NCBI RefSeq assembly: GCF_009931435.1
Contig: NZ_CP043414.1
Length of the DNA stretch: 64,000 nt
Source of the DNA: Escherichia coli
Lineage (GTDB): Bacteria > Pseudomonadota > Gammaproteobacteria > Enterobacterales > Enterobacteriaceae
Strand: one strand, 5' to 3'
Part shown: in pieces, positions 1,630 through 61,633 of the stretch
Layout of the letters: every line of letters begins with the position of its first letter
How positions within the stretch are numbered: position 1 is the stretch's first letter
Translations under genes and position numbers: made by a program
Notes under the pieces: generated by a model
Databases searched by the model: none
What the model was told of the DNA's origin: nothing
What the model saw: only the letters and a program-made list of their open reading frames with translations

Positions 1630-2878
1630 TGTTAGCCTCCACATGCGTCATTGCAGCTGTCGTTTTGCGATTCAAAATCGGGTTAAGGATCAGATAACTC
1701 AGCGCGCCACCTAATACCGCGTTGACCGGAACAATGCCCGGTAACCAGTGGCCTGCGGCAATCCCCAGCGTGACCGCCAGAATCGCCACCCAATTGACAC
1801 TCATCATACGCGTGGTCGCAAAGTGCTCATAGCGGCGACGGTTCATCAGAAAGTCGGCGATGATCACGCCACCCACCGGAGGAATAGCAGCCGAAAGGAA
1901 AGTCAGCCAGCCGACAAAATTGTTATACAGCCATAGTGCGCAGACTGTGCCGATAATACCGTTGATTACCGAAAGGGTTTTGCTCGACATACCGGTAATG
2001 TTGGCGAAACCTAAACCTGACGCATACAGTGCGTTATCATTGGTGGTCCAGATATTCAGCCCCAGCACCACAATCGCGGGCAGCAGCAAGCCCTGAGCAA
2101 TCATCACATCAGAGATATCCGCCATCCCCAGTGCCGCAGCGCCTGCCGCACCGAAAATAAACATCAACGAGTTGCCGAGGAAAAAGGCCACCATCGCCAC
2201 CAGCACCGCCAGTTTGGCATTGCGACCAAAGCGGACAAAGTCAGCGGTGAGCGTACCCGCACTGATAAATGACCCCACAACCAGCGCCAGCGCGACATTG
2301 AAATCTAACGGTTGTGCGGGAACGACCGCTTTTAATGCGTTCAGGCCGCCCATGTCGTTAACGGCCAGCCATACGGAATAACCGCCAAGGCAGGCAATCG
2401 CCGGAACCGCAATCACCGAAAGTACCGTCAGCGCCGAAATGCCAAAGAAGACGGTGACGGTCATCAGTAAACCGGAAACGGCAATCAGCAAATTAATATC
2501 CAGCCCGGTTGCCTTGCCCACCGGAATAGCAAACATCGCCACGCCAACACCGAACCAGCCGACCTGAGTGCCGCCCAGCAGCAGTGAAGGCAGCCATGAG
2601 CCTTTAACACCAAACGAGAAGCGAGCAAGAAGATGGGTGGTCAGGCCGGTTTTTGCGCCAATGTAACCAAGAAATGAAGTGTAAATACCGAGGAGAAGAT
2701 TACCGATGAGGACTGCGAGGAAGAAATCATGATAGCTAAGACCGGTTCCGAGAGTGCCGCCGGTCCACATACTGGCGGAAAAGAAGGTTAATCCCAGCAT
2801 GACGAACGTCAATGCCAATACCCCTTTCCGCGCCGACTGCGGGACTGGCCCCTGGCTAAAGTTGTTATCTTGCGACAC
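1619..2878 (-). CDS. codB: Cytosine permease (NCS1 family transporter)
   Basis: 419-aa polytopic membrane protein [19 protein letters not shown]...; upstream of and overlapping codA in a codBA operon. Confidence 0.93.
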
Positions 2879-3027
2879 GAAATTCCCCCTTTTTGCTGTT
2901 TGAAACCCAAAAAATCCGCCGCATTCTATTCATCTGAAGATAAAAAGCAATCGTTTTCGTGGGGGGGGTATATTTTTTATATGGATGAATGCGGAAAAGT
3001 GGATAAAAACTTATTTGAGAAAAAATG

Positions 3028-3375
3028 GGTACGCATGATAAGACACGCCTGCGTCGCATCAGGCATTGGTGCATGGTGTCGGATGCGGCGCGTGCGCCTT
3101 ATCCGACCTACGGTTCAGGCCTGTAGGCATGATAAGACGCGTCAGCGTCGCATCAGGCATCTGCGCACGGTGTCGGATGCGCCGCGTGCGCCTTATCCGA
3201 CCTACGGTTCAGGCCTGTAGGCATGATAAGACGCGTCAGCGTCGCATCAGGCATTGGTGCACGGTGTCGGATGCGGCGCGTGCGCCTTATCCGACCTGCG
3301 GTTCAGGCCTGTAGGCATAATAAGACGCGGTAAGCGTCGCATCAGGCATCTGCGCACGGTGTCGGACGCGCCACA
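3028..3375. repeat. REP/BIME array, about 3.5 tandem units of roughly 95 bp
   Basis: Near-identical units GATAAGACGCGTCAGCGTCGCATCAGGCAT...GGTGTCGGATGCGCCGCGTGCGCCTTATCCGACCTACGGTTCAGGCCTGTAGGCAT repeated; six-frame ORFs here show the same peptide repeated, as expected for a repeat array. Confidence 0.8.
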
Positions 3376-58195: not shown

Positions 58196-59116
58196 ATGAA
58201 AACGGTTTCGATAAAACACACTTACTGGGATATAGCTGCTGATATCTATTTCCCTGACGATTTTAATAGTGAAAAAAAGTATCCTGCCATTATCAGTGCC
58301 CATCCAATTGGAAGCTGCAAAGAACAGACATCGGGTAGTGTGTATGGTGCCGCCCTGGCAAAAGCTGGCTTTATCGTCATTGCTTTTGATGCCAGTTTTC
58401 AGGGAAGCAGCGGTGGAGAACCGCGTTATCTGGAAGATCCAACAATGCGAGTAAAAGACTTCAGCATTGTCGTTGATTACCTTACCACCTTACCTTACGT
58501 TGATGCCGGGCGTATTGGTGTACTGGGTATTTGTGGTGGAGGTGGATATGCCATTAATGCCGCAATGACAGAACGTCGGATTAAAGCCATTGGTACTGTC
58601 ACGGGTGCTAACTACGGGCGTCTTATGCGTGAGGGATTTACAGCGTTTAATCCTATCGGAGCACTCGAAGCAATGGCGCAACAAAGAACAGACGAAGCTA
58701 ACGGCGCAAAACTTCGCGTAGATGATTTGCTCCCTTCTTCTCCGGAAGCAGCTCTTGAAGCGGGATTAACAGAAATAGACCTTTTTGAAGCAACAGAATA
58801 TTATCGTTCGCCACGAGGCTGTGCGCCTAATGGGGTAAATCGTTCGCTATTTTCACATCAGACTGTTGCCGTGGGCTGGGATGCTTTTCATCTTGCAGAA
58901 GTCCTGTTAACTCAACCACTAATGGTTGTAGTGGGCGATAGAGTGGGCGCTTTTGGTGCCTATCGTGACGGCTGCGAAATTATTGGTCGTGCAGCCTCAA
59001 AACATAAAGAGTTGGTCGTGGTTGAAGGTTATTCACATTACGACCTGTATGATAAGCCAGAACCTGTGAAACAGGCGCTCGATAAATTAATTCCTTTTTA
59101 CAAAACACATTTGTAA
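58196..59116 (+). CDS. Alpha/beta hydrolase (dienelactone hydrolase-like)
   Basis: 306 aa with nucleophile-elbow-like GICGGGGYA; divergent from the LysR gene. Confidence 0.7.
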   Translation: MKTVSIKHTYWDIAADIYFPDDFNSEKKYPAIISAHPIGSCKEQTSGSVYGAALAKAGFIVIAFDASFQGSSGGEPRYLEDPTMRVKDFSIVVDYLTTLPYVDAGRIGVLGICGGGGYAINAAMTERRIKAIGTVTGANYGRLMREGFTAFNPIGALEAMAQQRTDEANGAKLRVDDLLPSSPEAALEAGLTEIDLFEATEYYRSPRGCAPNGVNRSLFSHQTVAVGWDAFHLAEVLLTQPLMVVVGDRVGAFGAYRDGCEIIGRAASKHKELVVVEGYSHYDLYDKPEPVKQALDKLIPFYKTHL

Positions 59117-59288
59117 TAACCTTGCAGGGAGATTCATTATCTCCCTGAGATTTATCCTTTATTGACTACACGACAATAATAAAATTACTCAAAAAGAATT
59201 CTATTAAAGGAAAAAAGCATCAAAAAGTAGCAACTCAACTTATTAAGATTATACGCATTAAAATCAGATAAACATTTGAGGTATTGTT

Positions 59289-60431
59289 ATGATAAATAAA
59301 CACCCATCATTGTTTTCTCCTTTTATGCTGACAGAAAAAATAAAGCTACGTAATCGTATCGTTATGGCCCCTATGACGACCTGGTCAGCTAATCCTGATG
59401 GAACCATCTCTGAGCAAGAACTCGAATTTTATAAACGTCGCTCACAAAATGTTGGTTTAGTAATAACAGGATGCACCTATGTCACGCCAAGCGGCATTGG
59501 GTTTACTCATGAATTTGCCGCATATGACGACCGTTTCATTAACAGCCTTGAAAAGTTAGCTGCTGCAGCCAAAAGTGGCGGTGCTCCGGCTATTTTGCAG
59601 ATTTTCCACGCCGGTAATAAAGCCATCCCGGAGCTTGTGCCAAATTACGATGTTATTAGTGCCAGCGCATCAAGCGTAAAATCTGGTGACTTTATGAAGA
59701 GAGTGGTACAAAGCAGGGAAATGACTGAAAACGAAATTCAGGAAACCATTAGAGCATTCGGAGATGTCACAAAAAGGGCGATTAAAGCAGGTTTTGATGG
59801 CGTTGAACTTCATGGTGCGCACGGATTCCTTCTGCAGAATTTCTTCTCCCCTCTATTTAACCAGCGTAATGACCGATGGGGAGGAGATCTTGAAGGACGT
59901 ATGCGCTTCCCGCTGGCCGTATTACAGGAAGTAAAAAATGTAGTCTATGAATATGCGAAAAAGCCCTTTGCCATCGGTTACAGAATATCTCCTGAAGAAT
60001 CTGTAACAGGGGGGCTGCGGATAGAGGATACTTATAAACTCCTTGATCGGCTCATTTCATCCGGTATTTCGTATATACATACCTCGCTGGTCAGTATTAA
60101 CGATAGCTACCCTGTTGAGTCGCCAAATGGCCCCCGAACTATTGAATTGATTTTAAATCATATTGCAGGCAGAGTGCCGGTAATCGCCGCAGGTAAAATA
60201 CGCACACCTTCTCAGGCTCAAGAAGCAATTTCCGCTGGCCTGCCACTTGTTGCGATCGGTAAAGGGCTGGTGATAAATCCAGAATGGGTGACTTTAGCTG
60301 AATCAGGTAGAAGTCATGAAATTCAAACAGCCCTTAATCCACAACGCGTTCCTGAATTAACCATTCCGGATAAACTATGGGATCAAATTCAGGCATCGAA
60401 AGGAACTGGCTGGTTTCCGTTAATGGATTAA
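59289..60431 (+). CDS. NADH:flavin oxidoreductase (Old Yellow Enzyme family)
   Basis: 380 aa with OYE-type motifs (RIVMAPMTT, GFDGVELHGAHGFLLQNFFSP). Confidence 0.8.
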   Translation: MINKHPSLFSPFMLTEKIKLRNRIVMAPMTTWSANPDGTISEQELEFYKRRSQNVGLVITGCTYVTPSGIGFTHEFAAYDDRFINSLEKLAAAAKSGGAPAILQIFHAGNKAIPELVPNYDVISASASSVKSGDFMKRVVQSREMTENEIQETIRAFGDVTKRAIKAGFDGVELHGAHGFLLQNFFSPLFNQRNDRWGGDLEGRMRFPLAVLQEVKNVVYEYAKKPFAIGYRISPEESVTGGLRIEDTYKLLDRLISSGISYIHTSLVSINDSYPVESPNGPRTIELILNHIAGRVPVIAAGKIRTPSQAQEAISAGLPLVAIGKGLVINPEWVTLAESGRSHEIQTALNPQRVPELTIPDKLWDQIQASKGTGWFPLMD

Positions 60432-60903
60432 ATATCTATTACTCTCCCGAGAGTAAAACTATCAAACCAATGAGTAACCGATACAGCCTCGCAAATTCTT
60501 TCAGATAATTAACCCGTCACTGCGGCACGTTCTCTCATAAGGCGTGCCTGCTGTGTAATCCAGTATGTATCCGGCATACTTGACGGTTTAATAGAACTCA
60601 ATTCCTTTCCCAGGTAACCAACAACGATATCTTGTATAACACCCCAGGAGATACGACATTATGATGAGATGAGGTATGCTCCTCAGCGCCAATCAACGCC
60701 AGGGCTGGGCCAGTTTTGAGATCAGACTCATTCCCGGACTGACTTCAGGCGACATATATCAATGACGTTGGGGCAATAAAAGATAGCCGATGTAATACAT
60801 CTATTCAAATTTGTGATACATGTCAAAAAATTGGTTGACCAAACTCGTTATTTATATAAGGGCACTTACGAAGTGCACTCTTTTTTAAAGCGAGGAAGTA
60901 CCA

Positions 60904-61005
60904 ATGAAAGAGAATAAAGTACAGCAAATCAGTCATAAACTGATTAATATCGTTGTTTTTGTCGCAATTGTAGAATACGCCTATTTATTTCTCCATTTCT
61001 ATTAA
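60904..61005 (+). CDS. ykgR: Small hydrophobic protein, 33 aa (YkgR-like)
   Basis: ATG preceded by GAGGAAG; MKENKVQQISHKLINIVVFVAIVEYAYLFLHFY has one predicted TM segment. Symbol is from recall of the K-12 small-protein set. Confidence 0.4.
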   Translation: MKENKVQQISHKLINIVVFVAIVEYAYLFLHFY

Positions 61006-61337
61006 TAACGGCAATAAACTGTTCACTTCAGTGATATTTAAAATATGCATCCTCTCCCTTTTTTTTAAGTGATTATTATATCCGTGGGAGAGGAATACAC
61101 GCTATCAGGTAATCAATCAAACTGCGATAAATCATCGGCCAGTAAAGTGGAGATAGCCTCCATTCTCGAAAAATTCATACTCTCAGCGAAACCATCATCA
61201 ATCACTCATCCAGGCGTTTATGGGAGCGTCGCCAATGGCTGCTAACAATGCCAGACTTCCCCGTTGCCGAAATTCCACATACCACAAATGGTCACAGGGA
61301 TTGGGTGTTGAAATGATCCGGATGAGCATGTATCTTT

Positions 61338-61360
61338 ACGGTTATGTTATAACATAACAG
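61338..61360 (+). promoter_or_regulatory. Zur box upstream of rpmE2
   Basis: Palindrome GTTATGTTATAACATAAC immediately upstream of the rpmE2 ribosome-binding site. Confidence 0.6.
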
Positions 61361-61369
61361 GTAAAAATG

Positions 61370-61633
61370 ATGAAACCCAATATCCATCCTGAGTATCGTA
61401 CTGTGGTGTTCCACGACACCAGCGTTGATGAGTACTTTAAAATCGGCTCGACTATCAAAACAGACCGTGAGATTGAGCTGGATGGCGTAACGTATCCGTA
61501 CGTAACAATTGATGTCTCTTCGAAATCGCACCCGTTCTATACAGGGAAGCTGAGAACAGTGGCATCAGAAGGAAATGTTGCACGGTTCACCCAACGTTTT
61601 GGTCGTTTTGTTAGCACGAAAAAGGGGGCGTGA
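61370..61633 (+). CDS. rpmE2: Ribosomal protein L31 paralogue, type B (zinc-independent; YkgM)
   Basis: 87 aa [18 protein letters not shown]... lacking the CxxC zinc ribbon. Confidence 0.9.

Follow-up and report, generated by a model that had tools for sequence, protein, structure and literature searches.

The window analysed in this study, a stretch of 64,000 nucleotides, belongs to an Escherichia coli chromosome, and the region described here consists of the promoter, the 5' leader and the coding sequence of ykgR, which encodes a known inner-membrane protein of 33 residues. The coding sequence (60904-61005, plus strand) starts with ATG and is translated into the 33-aa peptide MKENKVQQISHKLINIVVFVAIVEYAYLFLHFY. 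The Shine-Dalgarno sequence GAGGAAG (60892-60898, plus strand) is located 5 nt before this ATG. An earlier reading of this DNA, made from the letters alone (the sequence-only reading), had proposed a GAGGAAG ribosome-binding site followed by a 33-codon ORF with a single transmembrane segment, and both were found in place. This ORF is genuine and annotated; it is identical to ykgR of K-12, and it matches the NCBIfam equivalog model NF041474 (YkgR) over residues 1-33 of 33, with 78.1 bits against a cut-off of 40. Its peptide is identical to WP_000662258.1 / YP_002791238.1. Of 5426 complete E. coli genomes, 5072 were matched by a 401-bp query that included the flanks, each time over a feature annotated as "ykgR: small membrane protein YkgR". 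The gene corresponds to b4671 of K-12 MG1655 (313141-313242, minus strand), where it has the same neighbours as in the window, ykgM-ykgO, ykgL and matA/ecpR. The identification of the gene as ykgR can be taken as practically certain.

The ORF had thus already been annotated and studied as a model small membrane protein. YkgR is inserted into the membrane post-translationally in an SRP-dependent manner, and its SRP cross-links and its expression have been described (PMC7549839). It is cleaved by RseP (PMC10470546), and an N-in/C-out topology is given in a passage of PMC7558204 that cites Fontaine. YkgR has also been overproduced as a fusion tag (PMC7558204), and a reading of the protein as a type I toxin was dropped for this reason. 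Among nine sampled E. coli alleles, three substitutions were found in the ORF, all of them at third positions and synonymous, which supports coding constraint on ykgR.

The ykgR coding sequence of K-12 and the 150 nt upstream of it are 100% identical to those of the window. Between about 60791 and 61012 no base is different at all, in contrast to a divergence of 4-5% in the flanks. Across the species, a 211-bp core (60800-61010) shows at least 99% identity in 4323 of 5077 matching records, and the 401-bp query with its flanks does so in 85 records only. The two chromosomes also differ upstream of ykgR, where the window bears an intact alpha/beta-hydrolase gene (306 aa) and an OYE-family NADH:flavin oxidoreductase gene (380 aa) at 58196-60431, whereas K-12 has only the ykgP remnant, a pseudogene corresponding to the last ~30 codons of this gene pair. 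Among the 5426 complete E. coli genomes, 2116 carry the intact pair, and window positions 58196-60431 match strain RMDEC465 at 100%. In E. coli ERL04-3476, ykgR is annotated as a "frameshifted" pseudogene because one nucleotide is missing from the T5 run of GTTGTTTTTGTC (~60955-60960), and an O157:H7 match has the same 210-nt length as the match in this strain.

An exhaustive HMMER search for YkgR among 1.8 billion representatives gave nine hits, of which seven were near-identical or chimeric E. coli sequences and two, the Escherichia lineages L003 and L004, were truly divergent. L004 is about 87% identical to E. coli and carries the gene in a syntenic locus (fdeC ... ecpR), while in L003, with an identity of about 84-85%, ykgR adjoins a gene of the YdgH/BhsA family. 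In both of them homology reaches about 160 nt upstream of the ykgR ATG, and the control region therefore moves with the gene. E. coli, L003 and L004 made up the comparative set used below, and three lineages are too few for covariation statistics. In L004 (3001-3105), ykgR contains two compensated frameshift pairs, so that the nucleotides are nearly conserved and residues 4-12 and 24-26 are recoded; a ykgM/ykgO gene call is absent between ykgR and ecpR. In L003, the YdgH/BhsA-family gene (2432-3099) is directly upstream of ykgR. Separately, one of the mutants of E. coli delta-ydgH that escaped on benzethonium chloride had a point mutation between ykgM and ykgR (PMC11705850). A scan of species-representative genomes with a degenerate DNA pattern found two tiny contaminant contigs only. 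These contigs, of 403 nt and 264 nt, come from the assemblies of Sulfoacidibacillus thermotolerans Y002 and Alkalicoccobacillus porphyridii P16; they are identical to the K-12 ykgR locus and are almost certainly E. coli contamination.

Upstream of the leader, the sequence-only reading had pointed to TTGACC (60835-60840) and TATATAA (60853-60859), and both motifs are present. The pairing of the two as -35 and -10 elements did not hold. As compared with TTGACA and TATAAT, TTGACC matches at 5/6 positions, TATAAG at 5/6 and TATATA at 4/6, but the spacer is 12 nt when TATATA is taken as the -10 hexamer and 14 nt when TATAAG is taken. Both values are below the sigma-70 spacer length of 16-18 nt (15-19 tolerated), and the pair was not called in a sigma-70 consensus scan with spacers of 16-18 nt. 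The A/T-rich -10 region TATTTATATAAG (60849-60860, plus strand), delimited from the sequence and the lineage alignment, contains TATATA (60853-60858), which is unchanged across all lineages. A hexamer with both -11A and -7T is not present within 60849-60860. L004 has lost 5 nt between TTGACC and TATATA, which makes the spacer shorter still and creates TGTTATATA, an extended -10-like sequence; because of this deletion, TTGACC cannot be a conserved -35 element. Instead, TTGACC belongs to a conserved palindrome, of which it is half: the perfect inverted repeat TTGGT-TG-ACCAA (TTGGTTGACCAA, 60831-60842), which is an exact match to TTGGTNNACCAA and is unchanged in L003 and L004.

The core TTGGT-NN-ACCAA of this repeat is the motif of UxuR/ExuR operators, the GntR/FadR-family operators of hexuronate genes, and the ykgR palindrome matches it at 12/12 positions. 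The palindrome pattern of UxuR/ExuR operators, TTGGTnnACCAA, is present in the ykgR promoter region. Near-identical cores are found in K-12 in the gntP-uxuA spacer (TTGGTCAACCAT and GTGGTTAACCAA) and upstream of uxuR, in the uxuB-uxuR intergenic region, where TTGGTTGACCAG differs from the ykgR palindrome by one base. As judged from this likeness, TTGGTTGACCAA resembles a UxuR/ExuR operator and may be regarded as a candidate of this type; a perfect core is expected by chance a few times per genome. In genomic SELEX with UxuR, gntP/uxuA was the sole reported target and ykgR was not reported, which makes strong UxuR binding at ykgR less likely, although the assay also missed other listed members of the regulon (PMC5934670).

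A second palindrome is located further upstream. The perfect 13-bp sequence GATGTAATACATC (60789-60801, core TGTAnTACA) is a candidate operator of the GntR/FadR type and is invariant in E. coli, L003 and L004. The pattern TGTANTACA occurs a single time in the window, at 60789-60801, with 0.66 occurrences expected by chance. The TGTAnTACA core is present twice in the K-12 dgoR promoter, in TGTAGTACA and TGTACTACA. Although the three lineages are otherwise 12-16% different, neither TTGGTTGACCAA nor GATGTAATACATC varies among them.

Between these palindromes lies a CRP-like site, TGTGA-tacatg-TCAAA (TGTGAtacatgTCAAA, 60812-60827, centre 60819.5), which has one mismatch to TGTGAN6TCACA. The site is thus flanked by GATGTAATACATC and TTGGTTGACCAA, which resemble DgoR and UxuR/ExuR operators, respectively. 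It matches at 9/10 core bases; in 64 kb, about 2 sites with a match of this quality would be expected. Both half-sites are kept in L003, where the N6 spacer alone differs (tacacc), and the left half-site is disrupted in L004. CRP activation of ykgR was reportedly described in the 2010 work of Hemm and colleagues. The arrangement is similar to that of class II CRP-dependent promoters of the galP1 and melAB type, in which a TGTGA-N6-TCAAA site likewise abuts the core promoter, with a weak -10 element and no correctly spaced -35. It differs from them in that the spacing of -41.5 is only predicted here, in that -11A and -7T are not combined in any -10 candidate, and in that the left half-site is lost in L004. 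Each of these motifs, the CRP-like site and the palindromes, has a frequency near that expected by chance in 64 kb, and it is their clustering and their invariance that would argue for a function.

Downstream of the -10 region, the sequence-only reading had described a GC hairpin followed by a T-run, and the two are indeed present. The hairpin P1 (60862-60876, plus strand) is formed by GCACUU-ACG-AAGUGC, with 6 bp of which three are G-C pairs, and corresponds to GCACTT-ACG-AAGTGC in the DNA; it is followed by ACTC and by six T (60881-60886). It folds with -6.2 kcal/mol when its context is included and with -4.8 when the stem-loop is taken alone, and folding with more upstream bases did not predict an extension of the stem. 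A minus-strand terminator was considered as well and was rejected, there being no T-run after the stem on that strand. It had also been suggested that folding of the leader RNA be checked. The 26-nt hairpin segment is more stable than shuffled sequences (z = -3.1, with 3 of 200 shuffles as good), but the whole leader is not (z = -1.65). P1 is retained in all lineages. In L003 one A-U pair is replaced by G-U and one U-A pair by U-G, and zero pairs are broken; these changes preserve the RNA helix on the ykgR strand, while the symmetry of the DNA is lost. This observation is suggestive of a transcribed helix, with two events only and a chance probability estimated at 0.1-0.25. A common A/G polymorphism of E. 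coli is located just 3' of the stem, at 60877, where L003 has G, and the predicted stem is unaffected by it.

A second helix, P2, was predicted in the minimum free energy and consensus folds. Its 5' arm CUCUUUU (60878-60884, plus strand) extends over the first four residues of the T-run, and its 3' arm GAAAGAG (60906-60912, plus strand) comprises the G of the AUG and codons 2-3. The seven pairs between the arms appear in every fold and leave the Shine-Dalgarno sequence in the loop. The length of the loop varies across lineages, as does that of the T-run, which has six T in the window, five in L003 and four in L004, while the P2 arms are kept; all the lost T are beyond the CUCUUUU arm. Since both arms are invariant, covariation speaks neither for nor against P2, and compensatory double changes were found in neither P1 nor P2 among the three lineages. 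GAGGAA is invariant in L003 and L004, and the final G of the ribosome-binding site is A in L003.

The 3' side of the transcript was examined with the Term-seq data of Adams et al. 2021 for MG1655 (LB OD 0.4, LB OD 2.0 and M63 glucose). A 3' end was mapped at K-12 313047(-), in LB OD 0.4 only, with an average count of 48,378. This position corresponds to 61099 in the window; 94 nt separate it from the ykgR stop codon, and it is the probable end of the ykgR transcript. A hairpin (UCCUCUCCC...GGGAGAGGA, 61050-61094, plus strand), predicted by folding, begins 45 nt past the stop codon; it has a 9-bp stem and a long loop, and the mapped end is 5 nt further. Because no U-tract follows this hairpin, 61099 is probably a processed or Rho-related 3' end. 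A minus-strand terminator was considered as well and was rejected, there being no T-run after the stem on that strand.

Published tables of transcription starts and 3' ends were also consulted. Neither ykgR nor its K-12 coordinates appear in the Cappable-seq, ROSE, Kim 2012 and Reg-Seq supplements, which is uninformative, as ykgR was possibly unexpressed. Two start sites can be predicted. With class II CRP geometry (-41.5), transcription would start at about G60861, for which TATTTA would be a poor -10 element; with the invariant TATATA as -10 element, it would start at about 60864-60866, within the 5' arm of P1. The presence of the hairpin in the mRNA depends on which of the two is used, and this is the main uncertainty of the present analysis.

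Taken together, these features are best explained by a CRP-dependent promoter whose transcript carries a 5'-terminal stem-loop before ykgR, a reading that we consider evenly balanced; the role given in it to the hairpin is proposed tentatively. Transcription would most likely start from this promoter and not from the TTGACC/TATATAA pair, with the CRP-like site (centre 60819.5) abutting the core promoter and the -10 element lying somewhere within 60849-60860. The operator-like palindrome that contains TTGACC would overlap the spacer and would probably be bound by a repressor. From a start at about G60861, P1 would form the extreme 5' terminus of the mRNA, where it could limit 5'-end-dependent decay of this short transcript. 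The pairing of CUCUUUU with GAAAGAG at the start codon would modestly affect the access of ribosomes, and the T-run would then be an arm of P2 and not the tail of a terminator. The mRNA would be about 240 nt in length and would end at the 3' hairpin (61050-61099). The dependence on CRP is made less secure by the loss of the left half-site in L004 and by the 5-nt deletion in the promoter of that lineage.

The proposed leader can be compared with the 5'-terminal stabilising stem-loops of the ompA 5' UTR type. The ykgR hairpin would start at a distance of 0-2 nt from the 5' end predicted here and, as in that type, is followed by a U-rich single strand and then by the ribosome-binding site. It differs in its short stem, with about -6 kcal/mol, and in that its position relative to the 5' end is only predicted. 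The hairpin is real, and it looks like an ordinary 5'-end structure. In this way the anatomy of the region is corrected: what looked like a -35 element belongs, as one half, to a conserved operator-like palindrome, and attenuation by the hairpin with its T-run is not credible.

The alternative that survives best, possible but rather unlikely in our judgement, is that the hairpin is outside the ykgR mRNA, with a start within or just after it (~60864-60868) directed by TATATA or TATAAG. TATATA is the sole -10 candidate that is invariant in the three lineages, L004 gains a TG extended -10, and the standard distance of 6-8 nt from TATATA leads to +1 at 60864-60866. A start at 60864-60866 would remove the hairpin from the mRNA and would place CRP at about -44.5 instead of -41.5; over the range considered, -44.5 to -48.5, the CRP-like site would be on the wrong helical face. 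The repeat would then be just initial-transcribed DNA or, with the same rather low probability, a weak insulating terminator against read-through from the upstream hydrolase and oxidoreductase genes. These genes are co-oriented with ykgR and are intact here and in 2116 of the 5426 genomes, and the scan found no other terminator-like site from the oxidoreductase stop (60431) to ykgR. As a terminator, however, the hairpin is very weak (score -65, see below). Moreover, it accompanies ykgR into a different context in L003, where the neighbour is the YdgH/BhsA-family gene, and the wobble-compatible stem changes on the ykgR strand of that lineage suggest that the helix is transcribed.

The sequence-only reading had raised the possibility of an attenuator or riboregulatory element, in which the hairpin and T-run would prematurely end transcripts in the ykgR leader. 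This proposal was not sustained, and we now regard it as very unlikely. It is true that the element has the form of intrinsic terminators and of leader attenuators of the thr and pyrBI type, which have a hairpin and then a T-run in the 5' leader, that it follows the promoter region and precedes the ribosome-binding site, and that the hairpin is conserved. It was also picked up, as the sole hit, in a lenient terminator scan of 60400-61400. The same scan gave 0.6 +/- 0.7 hits in 1-kb shuffled sequences, so that the hit rate equals chance and the hairpin with its T-run is not exceptional by this measure. A terminator score of the d'Aubenton-Carafa type was -65 for the ykgR hairpin, far below the values of three real terminators, +35 for sgrS, +37 for the terminator-like 3' end at K-12 20763(-) and -18 for dapD. 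Unlike the thr and pyrBI attenuators, the ykgR element has a weak stem (6 bp, three G-C pairs, -4.8 to -6.2 kcal/mol), a 4-nt gap (ACUC) between the P1 stem and U6, and a U-run of variable length, down to five residues in L003 and four in L004.

Other properties of known attenuators are missing as well. A search of the leader against Rfam gave no match at E <= 1. As regards a sensing element, neither a leader peptide ORF nor a riboswitch match was found in the ORF list, the folds and Rfam, and P2 was the only alternative helix, with no antiterminator among the structures predicted. The ORF list contained no upstream ORF ending in the leader so as to suggest coupling. In the Term-seq data, no 3' end was present in the ykgR leader (K-12 313260-313299) or in the ORF, although an attenuated RNA of ~25 nt might escape the libraries, and the name ykgR was absent from four supplementary files of that study, including the table devoted to 3' ends of the 5' UTR and internal classes. 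Since a 3' end was mapped 94 nt beyond the stop codon, transcription of the unit proceeds across the leader, and the data contain no attenuated end.

A third alternative, in which GCACTTACGAAGTGC is not an RNA structure but an operator in the DNA, is scarcely credible. This 15-bp inverted repeat would be occupied by a repressor at about +1 to +15. The palindrome is perfect and comes directly after the -10 region, which is a common repressor position, and other operator-like palindromes are present in the region, but the substitutions in L003 break the dyad (GCGCTT versus reverse complement GCACCT) while RNA pairing is kept, and we know of no regulator motif that matches it.

In sugar-acid promoters, a CRP-like site is found adjacent to an operator, as at ykgR. 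It is conceivable, if improbable, that ykgR, which encodes an orphan small membrane protein confined to Escherichia, is wired like a sugar-acid catabolic gene, with a CRP site between two operators of the GntR/FadR type and a two-helix leader. The 5'-terminal hairpin and the helix over the start codon would in that case set the output further, a refinement that shares the low probability of the whole. Such wiring, if true, would tie YkgR to the use of hexuronates or galactonate in the gut. The pair of GntR-type palindromes around a CRP-like site is only a mildly new lead, and a GntR-type repressor at ykgR, or an mRNA-stabilising 5' hairpin, may help to find the function of YkgR.

One more palindrome was noticed on the other side of ykgR. 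It is a perfect 18-bp sequence, GTTATGTTATAACATAAC (61341-61358), which is located after the ykgM promoter and is presumably the Zur box of ykgMO. The ykgM promoter itself (TTGAAA-17-TATCTT, within 61308-61358) matches the constitutive promoter given by Shimada 2014.
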